The notes beneath the pieces are model-generated. The model saw only the letters and a list, made by a program, of their open reading frames with translations. It did not search any database and was not told the origin of the DNA. The translations under genes were made by a program, and so were the position numbers. A stretch of DNA of 64,000 bases from Balanoglossus misakiensis (taxonomy: Eukaryota; Animalia; Hemichordata): positions 13,075,337-13,139,336 of the forward strand of contig CM082584.2 of NCBI GenBank assembly GCA_040954595.2. Reading direction: 5' to 3'. Of this stretch, positions 1 through 28,804 are shown in pieces. Every line of letters starts with the position of its first letter. Position 1 is the first letter of the stretch.

Positions 1-3000
1 ATTTGGTCATTTTTTGAAAAAACCATGGGTTATAGCTCAGGAAAAATCGTCAAAATCGACGAAAATTTAGCGACATTCGCTGAAGTAGAATTTGGTCATT
101 TTTTGAAAAAACCCATGGGTTATAGCTCAGGAAAATCGTCATCCAAAAATCGACGATTTATCGACTTTGCGAAATTTGAAAATTTGGTCATTTTTTGAAA
201 AAAACCATGGTTATAGCTCAGGAAAATCGTCAAAAATCGACGATTTTCGACTTTGCGAAATTTGAAAATTTGGTCATTTTTTGAAAAAACATGGGTTATA
301 GCTCAGGAAAATCGTCAAAAATCGACGATTTTTCGACTTTGCGAAAATTCACCTTGAAAATTTGGTCATTTTTTGAAAAAACCATGGGTTATAGCTCAGG
401 AAAATCGTCAAAAATCGACGATTTATCGACTTTGCGAAATTTGAAAATTTGGTCATTTTTTGAAAAAACCATGGGTTATAGCTCAGGAAAATCGTCAAAA
501 ATCGACGATTTTTCGACTTTGCGAAATTTGAAAATTTGGTCATTTTTTGAAAAAACCATGGGTTATAGCTCAGGAAAATCGTCAAAAATCGACGATTTAT
601 CGACTTTGCGAAATTTGGAAATTTGGTCATTTTTTGAAAAAACCATGGGTTATAGCTCAGGAAAATCGTCAAAAATCGACGATTTTTCGACTTTGCGAAA
701 TTTGAAAATTTGGTCATTTTTTGAAAAAACCATGGGTTATAGCTCAGGAAAATCGTCAAAAATCGACGATTTTTCGACTTTGCGAAATTTGAAAATTTGG
801 TCATTTTTTGAAAAAACCATGGGTTATAGCTCAGGAAAATCGTCAAAAATCGACGATTTTTCGACTTTGCGAAATTTGAAAATTTGGTCATTTTTTGAAA
901 AAACCATGGGTTATAGCTCAGGAAAATCGTCAAAAATCGACGATTTTTCGACTTTGCGAAATTTGAAAATTTGGTCATTTTTTGAAAAAACCATGGGTTA
1001 TAGCTCAGGAAAATCGTCAAAAATCGACGATTTTTCGACTTTGCGAAATTTGAAAATTTGGTCATTTTTTGAAAAAACCATGGGTTATAGCTCAGGAAAA
1101 TCGTCAAAAATCGACGATTTTTCGACTTTGCGAAATTTGAAAATTTGGTCATTTTTTGAAAAAACCATGGGTTATAGCTCAGGAAAATCGTCAAAAATCG
1201 ACGATTTTTCGACTTTGCGAAATTTGAAAATTTGGTCATTTTTTGAAAAAACCATGGGTTATAGCTCAGGAAAATCGTCAAAAATCGACGATTTTTCGAC
1301 TTTGCGAAATTTGAAAATTTGGTCATTTTTTGAAAAAACCATGGGTTATAGCTCAGGAAAATCGTCAAAAATCGACGATTTTTCGACTTTGCGAAATTTG
1401 AAAATTTGGTCATTTTTTGAAAAAACCATGGGTTATAGCTCAGGAAAATCGTCAAAAATCGACGATTTATCGACTTTGCGAAATTTGAAAATTTGGTCAT
1501 TTTTTGAAAAAACCATGGGTTATAGCTCAGGAAAATCGTCAAAAATCGACGATTTATCGACTTTGCGAAATTTGAAAATTTGGTCATTTTTTGAAAAAAC
1601 CATGGGTTATAGCTCAGGAAAATCGTCAAAAATCGACGATTTTTCGACTTTGCGAAATTTGAAAATTTGGTCATTTTTTGAAAAAACCATGGGTTATAGC
1701 TCAGGAAAATCGTCAAAAATCGACGATTTTTCGACTTTGCGAAATTTGAAAATTTGGTCATTTTTTGAAAAAACCATGGGTTATAGCTCAGGAAAATCGT
1801 CAAAAATCGACGATTTTTCGACTTTGCGAAATTTGAAAATTTGGTCATTTTTTGAAAAAAACCATGGGTTATAGCTCAGGAAAATCGTCAAAAATCGACG
1901 ATTTTTCGACTTTGCGAAATTTGAAAATTTGGTCATTTTTTGAAAAAACCATGGGTTATAGCTCAGGAAAATCGTCAAAAATCGACGATTTTTCGACTTT
2001 GCGAAATTTGAAAATTTGGTCATTTTTTGAAAAAACCATGGGTTATAGCTCAGGAAAATCGTCAAAAATCGACGATTTTTCGACTTTGCGAATTTTGAAA
2101 ATTTGGTCATTTTTTGAAAAAACCATGGGTTATAGCTCAGGAAAATCGTCAAAAATCGACGATTTTTCGACTTTGCGAAATTTGAAAATTTGGTCATTTT
2201 TTGAAAAAACCATGGGTTATAGCTCAGGAAAATCGTCAAAAATCGACGATTTTTCGACTTTGCGAAATTTGAAAATTTGGTCATTTTTGAAAAAACCATG
2301 GGTTATAGCTCAGGAAAATCGTCAAAAATCGACGATTTTTCGACTTTGCGAAATTTGAAAATTTGGTCATTTTTTGAAAAAACCATGGGTTATAGCTCAG
2401 GAAAATCGTCAAAAATCGACGATTTTTCGACTTTGCGAAATTTGAAAATTTGGTCATTTTTTGAAAAAAACCATGGGTTATAGCTCAGGAAAATCGTCAA
2501 AAATCGACGATTTATCGACTTTGCGAAATTTGAAAATTTGGTCATTTTTTGAAAAAACCATGGGTTATAGCTCAGGAAAATCGTCAAAAATCGACGATTT
2601 ATCGACTTTGCGAAATTTGAAAATTTGGTCATTTTTTGAAAAAACCATGGGTTATAGCTCAGGAAAATCGTCAAAAATCGACGATTTATCGACTTTGCGA
2701 AATTTGAAAATTTGGTCATTTTTTGAAAAAACCATGGGTTATAGCTCAGGAAAATCGTCAAAAATCGACGATTTTTCGACTTTGCGAAATTTGAAAATTT
2801 GGTCATTTTTTGAAAAAACCATGGGTTATAGCTCAGGAAAATCGTCAAAAATAGACGATTTTTCGACTTTGCGAAATTTGAAAATTTGGTCATTTTTTGA
2901 AAAAACCATGGGTTATAGCTCAGGAAAATCGTCAAAAATCGACGATTTATCGACTTTGCGAAATTTGAAAATTTGGTCATTTTTTGAAAAAACCATGGGT

Positions 3001-6000
3001 TATAGCTCAGGAAAATCGTCAAAAATCGACGATTTTTCGACTTTGCGAAATTTGAAAATTTGGTCATTTTTTGAAAAAACCATGGGTTATAGCTCAGGAA
3101 AATCGTCAAAAATCGACGATTTTTCGACTTTGCGAAATTTGAAAATTTGGTCATTTTTTGAAAAAACCATGGGTTATAGCTCAGGAAAATCGTCAAAAAT
3201 CGACGATTTTTCGACTTTGCGAAATTTGAAAATTTGGTCATTTTTTGAAAAAACCATGGGTTATAGCTCAGGAAAATCGTCAAAAATCGACGATTTTTCG
3301 ACTTTGCGAAATTTGAAAATTTGGTCATTTTTTGAAAAAACCATGGGTTATAGCTCAGGAAAATCGTCAAAATCGACGATTTTTCGACTTTGCGAAGTTT
3401 GAAAATTTGGTCATTTTTTGAAAAAACCATGGGTTATAGCTCAGGAAAATCGTCAAAAATCGAAGATTTTTCGACTTTGCGAAGTTTGAAAATTTGGTCA
3501 TTTTTTGAAAAAACCATGGGTTATAGCTCAGGAAAATCGTCAAAAATCGAAGATTTTTCGACTTTGCGAATTTTGAAAATTTGGTCATTTTTTGAAAAAA
3601 CCATGGGTTATAGCTCAGGAAAATCGTCAAAAATCGACGATTTATCGACTTTGCGAAATTTGAAAATTTGGTCATTTTTTGAAAAAACCATGGGTTATAG
3701 CTCAGGAAAATCGTCAAAAATCGACGATTTATCGACTTTGCGAAATTTGAAAATTTGGTCATTTTTTGAAAAAACCATGGGTTATAGCTCAGGAAAATCG
3801 TCAAAAATCGACGATTTTTCGACTTTGCGAAATTTGAAAATTTGGTCATTTTTTGAAAAAACCATGGGTTATAGCTCAGGAAAATCGTCAAAAATCGACG
3901 ATTTTTCGACTTTGCGAAATTTGAAAATTTGGTCATTTTTTGAAAAAACCATGGGTTATAGCTCAGGAAAATCGTCAAAAATCGACGATTTTTCGACTTT
4001 GCGAATTTTGAAAATTTGGTCATTTTTTGAAAAAACCATGGGTTATAGCTCAGGAAAATCGTCAAAAATCGACGATTTTTCGACTTTGCGAATTTTGAAA
4101 ATTTGGTCATTTTTTGAAAAAACCATGGGTTATAGCTCAGGAAAATCGTCAAAAATCGACGATTTTTCGACTTTGCGAATTTTGAAAATTTGGTCATTTT
4201 TTGAAAAAACCATGGGTTATAGCTCAGGAAAATCGTCAAAAATCGACGATTTTTCGACTTTGCGAATTTTGAAAATTTGGTCATTTTTTGAAAAAACCAT
4301 GGGTTATAGCTCAGGAAAATCGTCAAAAATCGAAGATTTTTCGACTTTGCGAATTTTGAAAATTTGGTCATTTTTTGAAAAAACCATGGGTTATAGCTCA
4401 GGAAAATCGTCAAAAATCGAAGATTTTTCGACTTTGCGAATTTCGAAAATTTGGCCATTTTTTGAAAAAACCATGGGTTATAGCTCAGGAAAATCGTCAA
4501 AAATCGACGATTTTTCGACTTTGCGAAATTTGAAAATTTGGTCATTTTTTGAAAAAACCATGGGTTATAGCTCAGGAAAATCGTCAAAAATCGACGATTT
4601 TTCGACTTTGCGAAATTTGAAAATTTGGTCATTTTTTGAAAAAACCATGGGTTATAGCTCAGGAAAATCGTCAAAAATCGAAGATTTTTCGACTTTGCGA
4701 ATTTTGAAAATTTGGTCATTTTTTGAAAAAACCATGGGTTATAGCTCTGGAAAATCGTCAAAAATCGACGATTTTTCGACTTTGCGAAATTTGAAAATTT
4801 GGTCATTTTTTGAAAAAACCATGGGTTATAGCTCAGGAAAATCGTCAAAAATCGACGATTTTTCGACTTTGCGAAATTTGAAAATTTGGTCATTTTTTGA
4901 AAAAACCATGGGTTATAGCTCAGGAAAATCGTCAAAAATCGACGATTTTTCGACTTTGCGAAATTTGAAAATTTGGTCATTTTTTGAAAAAACCATGGGT
5001 TATAGCTCCGGAAAATCGTCAAAAATCGACGATTTATCGACTTTGCGAAATTTGAAAATTTGGTCATTTTTTGAAAAAACCATGGGTTATAGCTCAGGAA
5101 AATCGTCAAAAATCGACGATTTTTCGACTTTGCGAAATTTGAAAATTTGGTCATTTTTTGAAAAAACCATGGGTTATAGCTCAGGAAAATCGTCAAAAAT
5201 CGACGATTTTTCGACTTTGCGAAATTTGAAAATTTGGTCATTTTTTGACAAAACCATGGGTTATAGCTCAGGAAAATCGTCAAAAATCGACGATTTTTCG
5301 ACTTTGCGAAATTTGAAAATTTGGTCATTTTTTGACAAAACCATGGGTTATAGCTCAGGAAAATCGTCAAAAATCGACGATTTTTCGACTTTGCGAAATT
5401 TGAAAATTTGGTCATTTTTTGAAAAAACCATGGGTTATAGCTCAGGAAAATCGTCAAAAATCGACGATTTTTCGACTTTGCGAAATTTGAAAATTTGGTC
5501 ATTTTTTGAAAAAACCATGGGTTATAGCTCAAGAAAATCGTCAAAAATCGACGATTTTTCGACTTTGCGAAATTTGAAAATTTGGTCATTTTTTGAAAAA
5601 ACCATGGGTTATAGCTCAGGAAAATCGTCAAAAATCGACGATTTTTCGACTTTGCGAAATTTGAAAATTTGGTCATTTTTTGAAAAAATCATGGGTTATA
5701 GCTCAGGAAAATCGTCAAAAATCGACGATTTTTCGACTTTGCGAAATTTGAAAATTTGGTCATTTTTTGAAAAAACCATGGGTTATAGCTCAGGAAAATC
5801 GTCAAAAATCGACGATTTTTCGACTTTGCGAAATTTGAAAATTTGGTCATTTTTTGAAAAAACCATGGGTTATAGCTCAGGAAAATCGTCAAAAATCGAC
5901 GATTTTTCGACTTTGCGAAATTTGAAAATTTGGTCATTTTTTGAAAAAACCATGGGTTATAGCTCAGGAAAATCGTCAAAAATCGAAGATTTTTCGACTT

Positions 6001-7872
6001 TGCGAATTTTGAAAATTTGGTCATTTTTTGAAAAAACCATGGGTTATAGCTCAGGAAAATCGTCAAAAATCGACGATTTTTCGACTTTGCGAAATTTGAA
6101 AATTTGGTCATTTTTTGAAAAAACCATGGGTTATAGCTCAGGAAAATCGTCAAAAATCGACGATTTTTCGACTTTGCGAAATTTGAAAATTTGGTCATTT
6201 TTTGAAAAAACCATGGGTTATAGCTCAGGAAAATCGTCAAAAATCGACGATTTTTCGTCTTTGCGAAATTTGAAAATTTGGTCATTTTTTGAAAAAACCA
6301 TGGGTTATAGCTCAGGAAAATCGTCAAAAATCGACGATTTTTCGACTTTGCGAAATTTGAAAATTTTGTCATTTTTTGAAAAAACCATGGGTTATAGCTC
6401 AGGAAAATCGTCAAAAATCGACGATTTTTCGACTTTGCGAAATTTGAAAATTTGGTCATTTTTTGAAAAAACCATGGGTTATAGCTCAGGAAAATCGTCA
6501 AAAATCGACGATTTTTCGACTTTGCGAAATTTGAAAATTTGGTCATTTTTTGAAAAAACCATGGGTTATAGCTCAGGAAAATCGTCAAAAATCGACGATT
6601 TTTCGACTTTGCGAAATTTGAAAATTTGGTCATTTTTTGAAAAAACCATGGGTTATAGCTCAGGAAAATCGTCAAAAATCGACGATTTATCGACTTTGCG
6701 AAATTTGAAAATTTGGTCATTTTTTGAAAAAACCATGGGTTATAGCTCAGGAAAATCGTCAAAAATCGAAGATTTTTCGACTTTGCGAATTTTGAAAATT
6801 TGGTCATTTTTTGAAAAAACCATGGGTTATAGCTCAGGAAAATCGTCAAAAATCGAAGATTTTTCGACTTTGCGAATTTTGAAAATTTGGTCATTTTTTG
6901 AAAAAACCATGGGTTATAGCTCAGGAAAATGGTCAAAAATCGAAGATTTTTCGACTTTGCGAAATTTGAAAATTTGGTCATTTTTTGAAAAAACCATAGG
7001 TTATAGCTCAGGAAAATGGTCAAAAATCGACGATTTTTCGACTTTGCGAAATTTGAAAATTTGGTCATTTTTTGAAAAAAACCATGGGTTATAGCTCAGG
7101 AAAATGGTCAAAAATCGAAGATTTTTCGACTTTGCGAATTTTCAAAATTTGGTCATTTTTTGAAAAAATCATGGGTTATAGCTCAGGAAAATCGTCAAAA
7201 ATCGAAGATTTTTCGACTTTGCGAATTTTCAAAATCTGGTCATTTTTTGAAAAGAACATGGGTTATAGCTCAGGAAAATCGTCAAAAATCGAAGATTTTT
7301 CGACTTTGCGAATTTTCAAAATCTGGTCATTTTTTGAAAAAACCATGGGTTTTAGCTCAGGAAAATCGTCAAAAATCGAAGATTTTTCGACTTTGCGATT
7401 TTTGAAAATTTGGTCATTTTTTGAAAAAACCATGGGTTATAGCTCAGGAAAATCGTCAAAAATCGAAGATTTTTCGACTTTGCGAATTTTGAAAATTTAG
7501 TCATTTTTTGAAAAAAAACATGGGTTATAGCTCAGGAAAATCGTCAAAAATCGAAGATTTTTCGACTTTGCGAATTTTCAAAATTTCGTCGATTTTTGAA
7601 AAAACCATGGCTCAGGAAAATCATCAAAAAATGAGAATTTTTCGACTTTGCGAATGTTCAAAATTTGGTCGATTTTTGAAAAAACCATGCGTTATAGCTC
7701 AGGAAAATCATCAAAAAAATAAGAATTTTTCGACTTTGCGAATTTTCAAAATTTCGTCGATTTTTGAAAAAACCATGGGTTATAGCTCAGGAAAATCATC
7801 AAAAAATGAGAATTTTTCGACTTTGTGAATTTTCAAAAATTCGTCGATTTTTGAAAAAACCATGGGTTATAG
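1..7872. repeat. 87-bp tandem satellite array (~90 copies), runs off the left edge of the window
   Basis: Unit AAAACCATGGGTTATAGCTCAGGAAAATCGTCAAAAATCGACGATTTTTCGACTTTGCGAAATTTGAAAATTTGGTCATTTTTTGAA repeated head-to-tail. Copies are nearly identical to ~6900, diverge from ~7100, and the last partial unit ends at ~7872. Indels are frequent in the first ~360 bp. Confidence 0.98.
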
Positions 7873-18947: not shown

Positions 18948-18997
<50 letters not shown>

Positions 18998-20649: not shown

Positions 20650-20736
20650 GCAGTCACTTAGCTCTGCGTGGCAGGGCTGTGTTGTCACGGCGAGCCGTAA
20701 CCAACACAGCCCTGCCACGCAGAGCTAGCAGTCACT
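20650..20736. mobile_element. 69-bp palindromic MITE-like insertion with 9-bp target-site duplication
   Basis: Perfect 26-bp inverted repeat (20659-20684 / 20702-20727) flanked by direct repeats GCAGTCACT (20650-20658, 20728-20736). Confidence 0.8.
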
Positions 20737-21445
20737 AAGACTCCTGAGCTGCCTGATTACACACGGGGATCAGCTGATTCCTTAAAATTCAAAGAGGTAA
20801 GTCTGTTTTTATAAAACGCTTCCAGCACTACGTATTTCAGGCATACTTCTTTGCTTACAAGACATACTAGAGTAGATCACATAATTAGTCGCGGTGTAAA
20901 GTTGGCGAAGAAAAATCCAATTTCTTCGGCCTACAGTGTCAAACTGGTCAAGGTGGACGATTTCGTTCTTTTGCGCAGTTTCACCCCAAGTCTATAGGCC
21001 TACTTGCTGAAATTCTGGTGAACCTTTCTACCCTGGCTGAAAATATGGCAGTAAATCAGGTCTGAAAACTATTGTTATTCAAGGCAAGATAATTGCTAGG
21101 TCAGAGAAACAATTTGAAAAAAATGGAAATTGCAATGGAGTCATATTGGACCATTGCCAAGTGGTGGTACCAGGTGTCCTGTTAGGGGTAAAGGTTTTCA
21201 GATAAAGATGATTGATTAGCTTTCTACATATTTGATTATTTGACAACCATATAGGCATTACTAAATTACGGGCGCTTATAATCATTTTGTCAATAAATGA
21301 GCATATCCTAATAATGAATTCGAAATATCACTCCACTCTCGTCCCGCAAGTATCGCTCACAGAGGTCATTGAATTGTGTGATAAAGTATAAAAATGATGA
21401 CAGCTTTTGCATTAATTTTCCGTAGGTGTACAGTTCTCAGAAAAG

Positions 21446-24347
21446 ATGCCCGCGGAGAGAGTCCTTGGTGATATACACACCTGGCTTTCTGGAAAAAGCA
21501 AATTTCGCAGTTACAATCTTACATTTATTTGTAAAGATGAGGAGGTGAAGGCGATGTATGAAGAGGCTGGTAGGAAAGGAAACCTTCCGTTCAACAGAAG
21601 CAAAGTTATGTTCTTGGGAGATGCCCGTGTAGGAAAAACAAGTCTCCGACGTTTGCTGACCGGTGAGACATTTCAAGAGAACGAGCCGACAACGGAAGGA
21701 ATTGAGACTCAAATGTACGAATCCAAAGAAGTCGATCACAACTGGCGCGAATGTGTACAGAAGAGGTTTTCTGAATTTGAATTTGCTTCGTCTTGGTACA
21801 CCGCCTTGCAGTCTTTGAAGCAAGAACTACAATCAAGAAATTCATCTGACAAGGATTGTAGAAAGTTACAATCCTCGACAGAGGTTCCAACCTTTAGCGG
21901 TGTCGCCAGTTACATATGCAAAATATACCTAATAATGGTATTCATTTGCGCAGTAACCTTGGGTGATGGTTTTGCATTTGGTATCGCTCCATTTGAATGG
22001 GCTTTATTTATTGGATATTCTTTGGTCGGTTGCGACTTTCTGACGGAGACCTATCGTTTTGGCACTGGCTTAGCTCTCATTCTCCTTTTGGATAATTACA
22101 TAAGATGTCATTTCACGTTAACAGCCATATTGTTGAATATTGAAACGTTTTGTCTGAACATAGCCACAGTGAAGTACTTCGTCTTCTGTTTACCTTTCGT
22201 CATATTCAGTTGTATATTTGGCATTCTTGATGGTGTCGGTTGTCGAAGTGGTATCGCTTTTGGCCTGTGCCTGCTGCGACCACCGGGGGCGCTCTATTCC
22301 TCTGCAGAGAATCGCATTCAGCCGGATTTTGTAGACCGCCTTCCATTGGTATTTGAAACGATATTGGCTGTGAGCGGTCATTTTCTGGGCGTGATAATAA
22401 TGCGGTGTGTGATGGTTTCATTGGGGCGAATACCCTTCTCTCGTATCTCTGACTTGGCATGGGCTACACTTGCTTTGTTATTGATCGGGGTGACTTGGTC
22501 GATATTACCATGGCTCAGCGATTACTTCCTTCCACTTTTAGTTGGTCTTCTCCATGGGTTTGGGAAAACAACAGGGAATTTCCTTGGAAGAGAAATCGAT
22601 GAATCCACTGGTTTTGGGTATTTTACTCTGAAAGGAATCGGTGCAATCTTGGGATTGCTTCTCGGATTTCTGATAGGATGGTCATTTCAAGTTACAGGAT
22701 GTTCGTCTTTATCCTTCCTTATCTTCATCGCCTCAGTTTTAACTCATCCTCTTGTGGAACTTTGCGGGTATTGGGAGGTGACCAGACAAGAAATCCCCGT
22801 GAGGTGTGTCAGTAAAGCAATTGGGAATCAAAGGCGAGGTTACAAGAGGATGCCAACCAGACTAAGCCTGTGGGATTTCGCGGGACAAGAACTGTATTAC
22901 CATACCCACCACGTGTTTCTGGCCAGTCATGCGGTGTACCTTGTAGTGTTCAATCTCAAAGATGCAGTCCGCAATAGAACTCGACAACTTCACCGGATTC
23001 TGTTCTGGTTGCACTCGATTTCAACCCACACTGACAATAAAGATGCAGTCATTTTTCTTGTTGGAACTCACAGCGACAGTGTTGGACTCTCCGACAGGAA
23101 TGACGTTTCCAATTACCTGTACGAAAATCTCTACGATAACTTTTGTGACCGTTTGGTACTGAAGAATGACAACTGCGTTGTGTTTATGGTCGAGAATTCC
23201 AACATTCACGATTATGAAGCGCAGAACATTAAAGAGCATATTCACAGAATGGTTCTGGAAGCAGACTACATGACCGAAGAGTTTCCGATCAAGTACCTCC
23301 ACTTCTATGAACTGATCATAAGCAGGCGACAAGAAAGTACGGGAAAAGGCTGCTGTCGTAGTATTGCACGCTGCAACGAAGTCAGAGATTTCGTCCGCAG
23401 GAAATGTGGAATAACTGACGATGAGAGCTTTCATCAGTTGCTGAGCTTCTTCCATCGAGCAGGTGAGATAATCTACCATCCAGGTGATCAAACTCTCAAA
23501 GATTACGTCATCTTTGACCCACAACTACTTGTCGACGTGATGAAAACACTCGTGACTATTCCACCTCGTTGTGAACGACATCACAGGGTTGCTCCTTACT
23601 GGCATCAGCTTGAGACGAGAGGAGTTTTACACATTTCTCTAATGGAACACATTTTGAAAGAAAAGAATCTACCAAATGATATTGTTTCGCTGTTACAAGC
23701 TTATGATCTGATATGTCCGATACCAAATCAATCCTCCACCTCAGAGGAACTGTTCAGTGTGCCGAGCCTAATGCCCCCATGCTCAACGATGAACCCCGTG
23801 GATTGGTGGACCTATGGCAAAGATGAAGAAACCTACTATTTCAACTTTGGGTATTTTCGACCCGATGCCGTCTTCTGTCGCCTTCTAGCACGCTGTTCGA
23901 ACGCAGATAAACTGACAGATTACTCGGAAACCAGACAGATATTCCTCGATGCCGGAAAATTTTCATTTGGTTCGAAAGTCACCTTCAAACTGGAGCTTAT
24001 TCATCACTTGCCGGAGCAAAACCTGATAAAGGTCACAGCACAGACAGCAACAGACAGTGACTCCAGGATGTTCATAGGCTGGGTCATAGGTCAACTGGGT
24101 ATAATAAGAGAAAGGGACTTCAAATACCTGAAGTATGAGTTTGGTATTCCGTGCCCTGTACAACAACACAACATGTTGAAAAGTGCCGAGAAGATTCACA
24201 TCATTGAATTGGCGAGTGACAAGGACAGTGATCTGCCAGAGGCTGTGCCATTCCATTTTATCTGCGGAGGGCAACGTCACGTGGTAAACGTCTTCCAAAG
24301 GAAAGCTGATGTAAGGAACATTTATTTGTATCGCTATACATGCTAAC

Positions 24348-24384
<37 letters not shown>

Positions 24385-24970
24385 CTTCATCAAATGTAGC
24401 CAATAATGAGTCACTTCTGTCTTTATTTTCAGAAGCAGACCAAAATAAAATACGACACAAATATCTGCAAAATGCCACCATTACTTCACAGGAAAATATG
24501 TAATCTGTTGAATACTGAAAGTCTTTTAGCGGGCGATTGGAAAGTTCTAGCAAGTAAGTCATTAGTTTAGAAAATGAAAACATAATTTTTGTTTCCCAAA
24601 TAAATGTTGCCATACTGATAGAAACTGACTCTTATCAATTCTCTAAACTTGACCTTAAATAGTTGGGCAATACCTATTATTTAAATATCACCGACGCGAA
24701 GCATTACTATACTTCATTTCAATTTGACATACATTGATTGTTTCAGGCGAAATTGGCTGTACGGTAGAAGACGTGCAAGTGTTCGCCAGGGCCAATAATC
24801 CTACTGCTGAAGTTTTGCACTACTGGTCAACAACACACCTGACAACAATCAAGGACCTGTTGAATGTCTTAGCAAGACCATCCCTCTCTCGCAATGACGT
24901 CATTTCAACCATTAATGAGCACATTGTTTCTTTGAAAGGCGTTATTGATAATTTGGCATTGGAGAACTAA
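21446..24970 (+). CDS. Roco-family protein A: Roc GTPase with internal multi-TM insertion, COR domain, C-terminal death domain; ~1069 aa, 3 coding exons
   Basis: Exons 21446-24310, 24433-24553, 24747-24970, GT-AG and frame-consistent. P-loop GDARVGKTS, G2 TTEGI, G3 LSLWDFAGQ followed by YYHTHHVFL..AVYLVVFNL, G4 VGTHSD, G5 VENS. COR-like LLSFFHRAGEIIY..VIFDPQLLVDVMK..LLQAYDLIC..VPSLM. Death-domain-like ICNLLN..DWKVLASEIG..PTAEVLHYW..TIKDLLNVL..RNDVI. Probable non-coding 5' exon ending at 20796 (AG|GTAAGT) splicing to 21426. Confidence 0.88.
24348..24384. repeat. (GAT)12 microsatellite in a Roco A intron
   Basis: Directly visible. Confidence 0.95.
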
Positions 24971-26014
24971 CTAGTGAAATTCCATTATCGAATATGTAGA
25001 TGAGTTGAATTTGAGCACCTGGGTGGTGTATACTTGAAAGTGAAAACAATAGACTATCGAAGACCAGTCAAACGGGCAGATAGGCGAAATAACATACTAG
25101 AAGTTCATCTGTTCGTGCACACTATATTGCATTTCTGTCATAATTATATATGCCAGACATTTTTGCGAATGTACGGAGTTCAGTACAGTATAGAGTACAG
25201 TTCAAAATAGTGCAGTACAGATAAACAACAGAGTACACAGGAAAAAAAACGAAATCCTTGAAAGAAAGATATATATTCTCAGTTCATGAATATGTTGTGT
25301 TATTTACATACCAGAAACATAAAGGGGTAATATATGCTCACCTGTTGTTTGATGGATCGGACTTCGGCAAACCCGAATGAATGGCGCTTTCCGAAGGGTC
25401 CCGCAAATTTTCAGCGTCATCCTCGTCAACTCTTACTGGGTTTTGTTTGTACTTCACACCTTATCGTGTTTTAGATGCATGAATAAGGTTTATGCCGTCG
25501 CTAACCAGCACGTTTCTTCCACCGTGAAAGTGATGACATGAACGAAGTGGCGCCGTACTCTTGTGTGAAAGCACCTGGTGAAGCTATAAATCGCACGTGA
25601 TCACTCTCGACCAATTGAAATATCTATACAAAACAGCTGTACACGTACCAATCCCTAATTGGTTGACATGAAAGCAGTGGCTGCTAATTTAATGAAATTT
25701 TGCAAGTAGGTCAAATTCATTCAGTCAATCAATCAATCGGTCAGGAAGAAATCCAACACGAATTCATAAAGACGATTAATACTTGTTTATTATCAGATAT
25801 CCACTCATATCATAATACAATTAATGTCAACCTGTTTTGTGAAATGTAAAAATTACTGAACACTTGACTTTGACAATGTAAAACTGTTATGCATGTAACT
25901 CGAATAAATTCATGGTATATAAAACTGACGCGTGCAAGAGTATAAATTGTAACAATTTCAATGTATTGTATGGCACAACAGGTCTTACATATTTTTTACT
26001 GACGTTCTCTCAGT

Positions 26015-28804
26015 CTACGGACCAGGTTGTGGGTTTAAGTCTCGTGCATTTGTAATCTGACAGACTACAATGCTTTGTCTCCTTGATTCACAAATGATTT
26101 TCATCCTTCCATCAAGTCGGAGAGGAAGCTCGCCATTTGTCAGCGAAATCACGTGGAGTATCTCTGGATTCTGGAACTGGGCATGCGCCTTGAAAGGACA
26201 CAGAACACCAAACGTATACTCCAAATATGGAAAATCCCTCTTGCGTATCTCTTCCAAGTGCTGATAAAGCCAGCGAATGCAGGAGCTCGAGTCTGTTGAC
26301 TGCGCTTTCTGTATTCTAACTTTGATCAGGTTCTGTTCTGGTTGGTGATGCAACAGTTCCAGTTTGTAACATACTGTGGATGTTGTGAAGAAACCCACGT
26401 TTGAATAGATGTGTCTCTTAATGTTAAGGTCTGTCGCTATTGATGGCTTTTGGCAACGGGCTAGGAGACGCACGAAAACAGCATCTGGTAGAAAGCCCTT
26501 GAAGTTGATGTAAAATATGTCGTCATCTTCTTTATCTGCCCACCATCCACAGTGTCGTTCATTACAGGGCGACAGTAAACTGGGCACGATGAACTTTCTG
26601 CTGTTTACTTCATCAGAAAGTGGACATATCAAATCATACGCCTTCAGCAAGGACTCAACAACTGGCCTTGTCAAACCATTCAAATCACTAATGTGACTTA
26701 GGAGACGTACATCAAGTATTGCTTTCTCAGTTAACATCTTCCAACTTGACTTGAGATTGTTTGATTGCTTTTTAACTGATGGGGCCTTCATCAGATACAT
26801 CATGACATCAACGAGAACTTGAGGATCTAAAATTATGAAATCTTTCAATATGTCATCATCAAACTTGTATATTATTTCTCCGGCCTGATGGAAAAGGTTC
26901 AGCATATGTTGAAATTCATGTTCTTCTGTGATGCCATATTTGGTCTCAACTTCCTGTTGTGCTTTTCTGTAGGCATATATCATTTGTCCATCTTTCTCCG
27001 GACCCGGTTTTCTTTTCTCTTCCAAAAAGTCATAAAAATGCTCAAATCTGATTGGAATATCTTCTTTGACATAATCTGCCTCCTTGATGTATTTCAAAAT
27101 GCAATTTCGAAGAATATTTGTGTCTTTATCAGGTGGTTTTGAGTTCTCAATGGGAAAGACGTGGGTGTTGTCAGAATTCAAAACCAGACGATCGTAAAAC
27201 TTACTGGTTTTACTAAGTTTGTTATCAAAATATTGTGCTACCATGTCTCTCTGATTTTGGTCAACACTATCCCTGTGGGTACCAACAAGAAAAATTACAC
27301 TATCTTTGTGTTTCGCATGAGTGAAGATAGAATGTAGCCAAAACAAAATCCTGTTTAGTTGTTGTTCTAAATTGACGACTGCGTCCTCATAATTAAACAC
27401 TACTAAATAAACAGCGCGATTTGGCATGAACACGTGATGGGTGCTGTAATAAATATCATCACCTGCAAAGTCCCATAGACTCAATCTTGTGGAAAGATCT
27501 TGTACACCCTTGACCAGACGACTCATAGCATCAGTGATCAACGAAATTGGAACGCTCTGTTTGGTTATTTGAAAATGCATGTAGAATTCAATTATTGGAT
27601 GCATTAGGACAGAAATAATGAAAACCGATGACGGCAAGTTAAAATTATTTGGGAGCTGAAATTTCCAATCCATGAACGTACCTATAAGAATTCCTAGAAG
27701 TATTCCCCCACATTTCTTTGTACGGTATGAAGGATTAATCTTCATCTCAATTTGTCTGGCATGCAAACTTATAATTATAAAAGAAAAACAAAGTAAAATT
27801 CTTAACACAAATGAGACGAACGATTTTAACAAAAACGAAACGAACACAACAATTGCAACCAGATACGCCTTGTTGAATACACGCCAGACTCTTAATAAAA
27901 TAACCCCCAATATAATTGCCGAGAAAAACGTTAGACCGTCAACAGTGTGTCTGCTGTCGGGAATAAATTCCGTCCAATCGTACTCGCCACGATTTAGCAA
28001 ATGTTCAGGAGGAACAAGGATACATAGCGTCAGAGCCACATTTGACCTAAAACCTGTACTCGTAATACTGCCAAAAAGTGCTCCCAATAAAAGGGCAAGT
28101 ATGATCATCAGAAAGAACCACTCATACGATGACGTATGGGTGGGTGTATGATCACTGGAAATCAACAAATTCCCGGCAAAGTATCGTAGTAAGTGGTCAG
28201 CCGTCAATAGAAGTGGAACCACTGCTGCAAATTTATATGCACTGTAAAGATCTTCACCAGTTAACATAAGGGAAAGAAGTGAAATCATTTCAAGTAGTCC
28301 AAAACCTAGTATAAACACATTCTTGAAAAGGACAATGTACGCTATGAACGCCAGAAGAAAGAATTTCACTATCACAAGGCCTTCAAACATTGTCTTAAGA
28401 TTCTGCGTGGTCGACTTTTGCATTGGAGGAACACGAACTTTCAATAGATGTTTAGCAGTGTACCACGATGCTACGGACTCAAACTTATTTTTCTCATCTT
28501 CCTTAGGTTTCATCCATGTATCGTCAACTTCATTCACCTCACGTATTTGCGTCTGTATCCCCTCAGTGGAAGGTTCGTGTCTACGGAATCCCTGTCCTGT
28601 TAACTGACGCACCAGGCTTGTTTTTCCAACACGAGCATCACCCTGGAATAAAACTTTACTGCGATTGAATGGTAACTTGCCGTTTCCTTCTGCTGTCTTG
28701 TAAACGTCTTCTACTTTCTTGACATTGGATAAAACGCCTCCGTGGGTGAGAATTGACCCGAAATCTTCTTTCAGCCAATCTTTAGTGTTGGACGAATCTT
28801 CCAT
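26015..28804 (-). CDS. Roco-family protein B: Roc GTPase with internal multi-TM insertion, COR domain, no death domain seen; ~929 aa, single coding exon
   Basis: Uninterrupted ORF with first ATG at 28804 (MEDSSNT; the ORF track start at 28816 is a GTG). GDARVGKTS (28642-28616), STEGI, LSLWDFAGD, VGTHRD, IENS; COR-like MLNLFHQAGEII..ILDPQVLVDVM..LLKAYDLIC. Collinear with paralog A. Acceptor at 28827/28826, upstream donor at 29239/29238, minus-strand AATAAA at 25791-25786. Confidence 0.87.
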   Translation of the reverse strand: MEDSSNTKDWLKEDFGSILTHGGVLSNVKKVEDVYKTAEGNGKLPFNRSKVLFQGDARVGKTSLVRQLTGQGFRRHEPSTEGIQTQIREVNEVDDTWMKPKEDEKNKFESVASWYTAKHLLKVRVPPMQKSTTQNLKTMFEGLVIVKFFLLAFIAYIVLFKNVFILGFGLLEMISLLSLMLTGEDLYSAYKFAAVVPLLLTADHLLRYFAGNLLISSDHTPTHTSSYEWFFLMIILALLLGALFGSITSTGFRSNVALTLCILVPPEHLLNRGEYDWTEFIPDSRHTVDGLTFFSAIILGVILLRVWRVFNKAYLVAIVVFVSFLLKSFVSFVLRILLCFSFIIISLHARQIEMKINPSYRTKKCGGILLGILIGTFMDWKFQLPNNFNLPSSVFIISVLMHPIIEFYMHFQITKQSVPISLITDAMSRLVKGVQDLSTRLSLWDFAGDDIYYSTHHVFMPNRAVYLVVFNYEDAVVNLEQQLNRILFWLHSIFTHAKHKDSVIFLVGTHRDSVDQNQRDMVAQYFDNKLSKTSKFYDRLVLNSDNTHVFPIENSKPPDKDTNILRNCILKYIKEADYVKEDIPIRFEHFYDFLEEKRKPGPEKDGQMIYAYRKAQQEVETKYGITEEHEFQHMLNLFHQAGEIIYKFDDDILKDFIILDPQVLVDVMMYLMKAPSVKKQSNNLKSSWKMLTEKAILDVRLLSHISDLNGLTRPVVESLLKAYDLICPLSDEVNSRKFIVPSLLSPCNERHCGWWADKEDDDIFYINFKGFLPDAVFVRLLARCQKPSIATDLNIKRHIYSNVGFFTTSTVCYKLELLHHQPEQNLIKVRIQKAQSTDSSSCIRWLYQHLEEIRKRDFPYLEYTFGVLCPFKAHAQFQNPEILHVISLTNGELPLRLDGRMKIICESRRQSIVVCQITNARDLNPQPGP

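Follow-up and report, generated by a model that had tools for sequence, protein, structure and literature searches.

Tail-to-tail Roco GTPase genes with a predicted membrane insert inside the ROC domain in the hemichordate Balanoglossus misakiensis

Locus and gene structure

The window, by which we mean the whole 64,000-nucleotide stretch of B. misakiensis DNA that was analysed (contig CM082584.2, positions 13,075,337 to 13,139,336 of the forward strand), carries in order an 87-bp satellite, DBF4, a DnaJ gene, the two Roco genes designated A and B, and an SSDP/SSBP gene. The neighbours were assigned by Pfam matches to zf-DBF, DnaJ and SSDP, which bears out the placement of A and B between housekeeping genes in a preliminary description of the locus, where the DnaJ gene was named DNAJC14. 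A DBF4 exon showed 80% identity to its P. flava counterpart, compared with 58% for Glandiceps and 54% for Saccoglossus. The following features are referred to below.

1..7872: 87-bp satellite, about 90 copies with 97% matches
20797..21425, plus strand: predicted 5′-UTR intron of gene A, inferred from sequence (GTAAGT donor, AG acceptor 20 nt before the ATG)
21446..24310, plus strand: gene A exon 1, encoding the N-terminal ROC half, hydrophobic insert, C-terminal ROC half, COR-A and COR-B
21617..21640, plus strand: gene A P-loop motif, in exon 1
21893..22786, plus strand: gene A membrane insert (residues 150-447, about 300), predicted multi-pass, between ROC strands β2 and β3
22874..22888, plus strand: gene A DFAGQ motif (residue 477)
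24433..24553, plus strand: predicted second exon of gene A, encoding a linker and the first part of the death domain (splice sites, tblastn to relatives)
24747..24970, plus strand: gene A predicted exon 3, remaining death domain and stop (splice sites, tblastn, family profile)
25786..25791, minus strand: AATAAA, candidate poly(A) signal of gene B, 224 nt past its stop
26015..28804, minus strand: gene B, single coding exon of 929 aa, with split ROC, membrane insert and COR and without a death domain
27472..27458, minus strand: gene B DFAGD motif (residue 445)
27563..28408, minus strand: gene B predicted membrane insert (residues ~133-414)
28642..28619, minus strand: gene B P-loop motif

The satellite also holds long repetitive open reading frames on both strands, which are artefacts. 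A perfect 26-bp inverted repeat with a 17-nt spacer (20659-20727), possibly a MITE remnant, lies immediately 5′ of the predicted first exon of A, and GAT/TGA trinucleotide runs occur at 18948-18997 and 24348-24384, one of which opens the first coding intron of A.

The predicted GT-AG joins of gene A (21446-24310/24433-24553/24747-24970) gave a stop-free frame of 1069 aa from the ATG at 21446 to the stop at 24970; read through its intron, exon 1 stops 11 residues later. By tblastn, exons 2 and 3 matched the C-terminal death domains of Ptychodera and Glandiceps relatives (E down to 6e-18), and the predicted spliced tail scored 113 bits on the family death-domain profile and was 57% identical to PF00531-positive Ptychodera tails. 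Because neither exon matched any Pfam family when scanned alone, the death-domain label of A rests on homology to these PF00531-positive relatives. Given the predicted splicing, the sequence indicates that A carries a C-terminal death domain, as the preliminary description had noted along with the DFAGQ motif.

Exon 1 of A, modelled with AlphaFold (mean pLDDT 78.8), matched LRRK1, LRRK2 and bacterial Roco proteins (Foldseek E 3e-15; Z 25.7, rmsd 3.9, 460 aligned), and also the COR structure 3dpt (Z 16.0, rmsd 4.2, 273 aligned). A Rab aligned to the model over 172 residues spanning 47-611, a span across which the two ROC halves are predicted to close into a single G domain, from which the insert protrudes at the β2-β3 interswitch.

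As first described, A and B are collinear, diverged paralogs (37% identity over 925 columns) that lie tail-to-tail, with stops at 24970 and 26015, 1045 nt apart; both frames are intact, B as one open reading frame of 929 codons and A as the predicted spliced frame. Both matched Roc (PF08477, E 1e-19 and 4e-18, in two stretches) and COR-A in Pfam, the COR-A match being above the cut-off in A and just below it in B, and COR-B was weak in B. The P-loop, the switch-I Thr, G4 (THxD) and the G5-like motif are intact in both, and a scan of A, B and full-length relatives found no kinase domain. Per domain, B is 55-59% identical to A in ROC, 37-42% in COR and 24% in the membrane insert, and its model (pLDDT 78.5) folds as well as that of A.

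The membrane insert and its family

Seven hydropathy peaks of at least 1.5 were found in the A insert and six in that of B, and the spacing from switch I to DxxG is about 390-420 residues in both proteins. The inserts are helical in both models, with glycine-rich helices; on hydropathy and these models, the insert is predicted to span the membrane. The insert of B is about 25 residues shorter than that of A in one helix region and lacks several conserved glycines. The insert had no match in Pfam, none below E 2 among PDB sequences and no usable match in the Atlas, the fold searches being dominated by ROC-COR.

A profile of the insert built from hemichordates and echinoderms matched 58 of 186 proteins, including amphioxus P0037 and Tubulanus P0054, with 147 shuffled or reversed controls scoring at most 4.3 bits. 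HHalign comparison indicated that the insert is homologous to that of the Lingula clade (98%; reversed control 1.3%), and detected no homology to the inserts of the Acropora-type clade (P0030 and P0074-P0122; 0.1%) or of the caspase-bearing P0043 (5.9%). These last inserts are hydrophobic, have the same size and sit at the same ROC site as the hemichordate one; they may be very diverged or independent in origin. A shorter insert occupies this site in 57 other Roco proteins, in 55 of which it has no hydrophobic segment, which suggests that insertions are tolerated here. Conservation of the insert within recent Ptychodera clades is 61-83%, compared with 77-94% for the ROC halves, a difference that fits either relaxed or diversifying selection.

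Relatives were found in Ptychodera, Glandiceps, Patiria, Asterias, Anneissia, Amphiura, Branchiostoma, Lingula, Tubulanus and Acropora, and on sequence, membrane-split Roco GTPases appear to occur in hemichordates, echinoderms, amphioxus, a brachiopod and a nemertean. The tails of 30 scanned relatives comprised death (e.g. P0007, P0037 and P0048), TIR, caspase or no domain. Death tails are present in Branchiostoma and Lingula and borderline in Patiria; a TIR tail scored above the cut-off in Tubulanus P0054 and below it in two Ptychodera proteins; and P0043 (Branchiostoma floridae XP_035660786) combines a hydrophobic insert in ROC with a C-terminal caspase (E 1e-56). Another Branchiostoma floridae model, P0041 (1362 aa), contains two ROC-COR units with death domains and may represent two fused tandem genes. 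In view of the effector domains and the lineage expansion, the family likely triggers immune or cell-death signals.

Roco or AP-GTPase proteins with TIR, death or caspase tails are described, in the available text of the respective papers, for Aplysia (PMC9334734), anemones (PMC5094078), Trichoplax (PMC4104024) and prokaryotes (PMC8195603); death or TIR tails on invertebrate Roco proteins are already on record. According to the same portions of these papers, those proteins share with the A/B family the ROC-COR core, the swappable immune-type effectors and the lineage-specific expansions, but are soluble, sense through LRR or other repeats and have no membrane block inside ROC. Such a block was not described in the literature searched, although the source data of PMC8195603 or older papers on Roco evolution could list it. 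The proposal of an undescribed innate-immunity or cell-death module can be kept for the family, which looks undescribed, and not for A and B as a conserved unit.

Ancestry, linkage and the 3′ end of gene B

Phylogenetic analysis placed A as sister to six Ptychodera clusters (100/100) and grouped B with Glandiceps P0036 (XP_077992182; 100/100), its nearest relative at 48-52% identity. A clade of A and B was rejected (AU p 7e-30; 18 rows, ROC-C plus COR, LG+G4), this group having been taken from the preliminary description and tested after earlier trees. In Ptychodera, 16 clusters at 90%, some of which may be isoforms, lie on one 45.7-Mb chromosome, 15 of them with a death domain, and the same chromosome bears DBF4, the near neighbour of A in the window. 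No B orthologue was found among the annotated Ptychodera proteins, with no match above 39%; since this search covered annotated proteins, an unannotated or fragmentary Ptychodera B gene would be missed. In Glandiceps, DBF4 and both death-domain members found, P0017 and P0097 (331 aa, which could be a fragment of an A orthologue), lie on a 28.8-Mb chromosome and P0036, the B orthologue, on one of 24.25 Mb. Linkage of A and B was thus not seen in either species at the chromosome level among annotated proteins and, with A and B not being sisters, the idea of a conserved A-B unit was not supported.

The difference between DFAGQ in A and DFAGD in B might be taken to mark B as an inactive or decoy partner. 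Among 153 proteins with a P-loop found by pattern (which missed B; 22 had no located G3), 71 were insert-bearing, defined by an insert of 280-520 residues with at least three hydrophobic segments. D follows DxxG in 39 of these, Q in 27 and some other residue in 5. The family insert and a death domain occur together in 27 proteins, of which 15 have D at this position, 11 have Q and one has N. Isoforms and close paralogs are among the proteins counted, and the observations are not independent. The six Ptychodera co-orthologue clusters of A, all with death domains, carry D or N, LRRK2 carries R, and Q is found in only 10 of 20 reviewed Roco proteins in the available text of a preprint (PMC13345514). 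D is therefore the commonest state, also in members with a death domain, and DFAGD does not mark a decoy.

A dedicated membrane heterodimer joined through COR, in which A signals and B acts as co-sensor or dominant-negative brake, had been put forward by analogy with plant paired NLRs. Dimer formation through COR is established and, as far as the available text of a review goes, COR is the site of Roco dimer formation and Roco heterodimers are mentioned (PMC4104024); the ROC and COR identity that B keeps to A, its well-folding model and the death-domain loss that it shares with Glandiceps are in keeping with such a dimer. Plant pairs likewise consist of two adjacent, diverged paralogs of unequal domain content, but in the available text of PMC9528088 they are generally arranged head-to-head around a shared promoter, include an integrated decoy domain and depend on each other one-to-one, whereas A and B are tail-to-tail without a shared promoter or integrated domain, and their linkage was not seen in Ptychodera or Glandiceps. 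Neither a catalytically dead partner nor an integrated sensor domain was found, the G motifs of B being intact and no extra domain present, and one-to-one co-retention was not seen among the annotated proteins of two species, Ptychodera having six A-type clusters and no B-type one. The D/Q difference, as common family variation, and the low identity of the inserts (24%) likewise speak against the pair. A complex prediction of the A COR with the B COR scored 0.01 (without alignments; controls not folded) and counts neither for nor against it. Motif state, tree, linkage and orientation together make an obligate pair unlikely; B may still bind family members via COR, by analogy with other Roco proteins, and its adjacency to A in itself adds little.

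Less probable still is that B is a truncated paralog under relaxed selection and heading for loss. B has lost the effector. It retains 85 of the 92 columns that 32 other members of the family conserve, compared with 90 in A, four of its seven changes (A has two) falling in the membrane insert; moreover, no orthologue was found in Ptychodera, and P0036 is annotated without its N-terminal half, that is, the P-loop and insert, which suggests that the Glandiceps gene model may be incomplete. Against decay, the 929 codons of B are open, all 26 invariant columns are kept (in an alignment that includes B), the root-to-tip length is similar to that of A in a quick tree, and identity to P0036 is higher in ROC (61%) than in COR (47-50%), a pattern that fits purifying selection. 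P0036 ends at the same point after COR and likewise lacks a death domain, which supports, from sequence, a death-domain loss shared by B and its Glandiceps orthologue. B thus looks constrained rather than degenerate, and a conserved loss of the death domain in its lineage is what a regulator would show.

It is very improbable that B has unrecognised downstream exons with a C-terminal effector, which would make the asymmetry an annotation artefact. Its short tail after COR resembles a missed intron, much as exon 1 of A soon ends when read through, and a strong-looking minus-strand donor lies near 25341. Nevertheless, when all six frames of the window were searched with a profile made from the tails of 20 relatives, the only matches were the exons of A and the COR end of B (next best E 0.089), the latter being the sole match on the minus strand, so the absence of a death domain after COR, as first reported for B with its DFAGD motif, was upheld for the window. 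The best splice donor in the last 70 codons of B scored 0.6, compared with 3.2 and 5.1 for the introns of A, splicing within 1.1 kb would lengthen the frame by 44 residues at most, only 1 kb separates B from the last exon of A, and the Glandiceps orthologue stops at the corresponding point. Hidden death-domain exons, which the preliminary description had named as a finding that would overturn its view of B, were found neither by the profile nor by the donor scan.

Two candidates downstream of B were rejected. An in-frame death-domain remnant past the stop reached a score equalled by chance at 0.07-0.31 (11 plausible offsets), and a minus-strand exon candidate at 25623-25342 offered only short stop-bound frames without a family match. 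The latter segment is GC-richer, with a plausible acceptor and a strong CAG/GTGAGC donor, and is possibly a non-coding exon of B or of another transcript. The first AATAAA past the stop of A is at 25903 (plus strand) and that past the stop of B at 25791 (minus strand), positions from which the 3′ UTRs of A and B may overlap by about 100-150 nt.

Interpretation and comparison with known systems

The reading that we favour, at a probability of about 0.55, is that A and B are old, separately evolved membrane-split Roco proteins, that A is a death-domain switch, and that their adjacency does not reflect an obligate pair; B likely adjoins A because the family clusters on this chromosome. A would then be a membrane-anchored switch signalling through its death domain. 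With both ROC halves inferred to be cytosolic, the number of membrane crossings in the insert would be even; its outer loops would be short, with no ectodomain or LRR. A cue sensed in the membrane, be it a lipid, a partner protein or damage to the membrane itself, would put tension on the interswitch and shift the GDP/GTP state, altering COR-mediated dimerisation, and the death domain would thereby be clustered or released and an adaptor with a death domain recruited. In B, the membrane and switch functions would persist without an output of their own; at most, B would tune family members generally. More tentatively, the family may comprise overlooked invertebrate receptors without ectodomains, in which a multi-pass membrane sensor is built into the interswitch of an LRRK2-type GTPase and drives a death, TIR or caspase output that can be swapped, and the effector-less B, kept in acorn worms, dampens the signalling members through COR.

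A non-immune family whose insert is a transporter, channel or organelle anchor with a role in trafficking or development, which the glycine-rich insert helices, the housekeeping neighbours and the membrane-traffic roles of LRRK-type proteins might suggest, is the least probable reading, given the death, TIR and caspase tails and the large lineage-specific expansion typical of immune families, and the lack of insert similarity to known families in Pfam, PDB sequences and the Atlas.

LRRK1, LRRK2 and the Chlorobium and Methanosarcina Roco proteins share the ROC-COR tandem with A and B, as judged from Pfam, sequence and predicted fold, and have a variable residue after DxxG; compared with LRRK1, LRRK2 and bacterial Roco, A and B lack LRR, ankyrin and kinase domains, and their ROC is split by a predicted membrane block of about 300 residues. 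DAPK1 has the architecture kinase-ankyrin-ROC-COR-death, and A resembles it in having ROC-COR followed by a C-terminal death domain, but lacks the kinase and ankyrin parts and has the membrane insert inside ROC. To our knowledge, the Roco proteins described from animals so far are soluble and reach membranes through their partners. Anthozoan NLRs, as described in the available text of PMC5094078, are also NTPase-switch immune receptors tied to the membrane by several helices; they differ in using a NACHT ATPase and in that the three to five transmembrane segments are N-terminal and not inside the switch.

As relatives of LRRK2, the Parkinson's protein, A and B belong to a membrane-split Roco family that would offer a minimal system for the membrane control of a ROC-COR switch, of relevance to LRRK2, and P0043, with its ROC insert and caspase, would be a good test case for the switch-effector model. 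If the reading is true, a membrane block in a GTPase switch coupled to death, TIR or caspase outputs would represent a new design of innate sensor, present in several invertebrate phyla.
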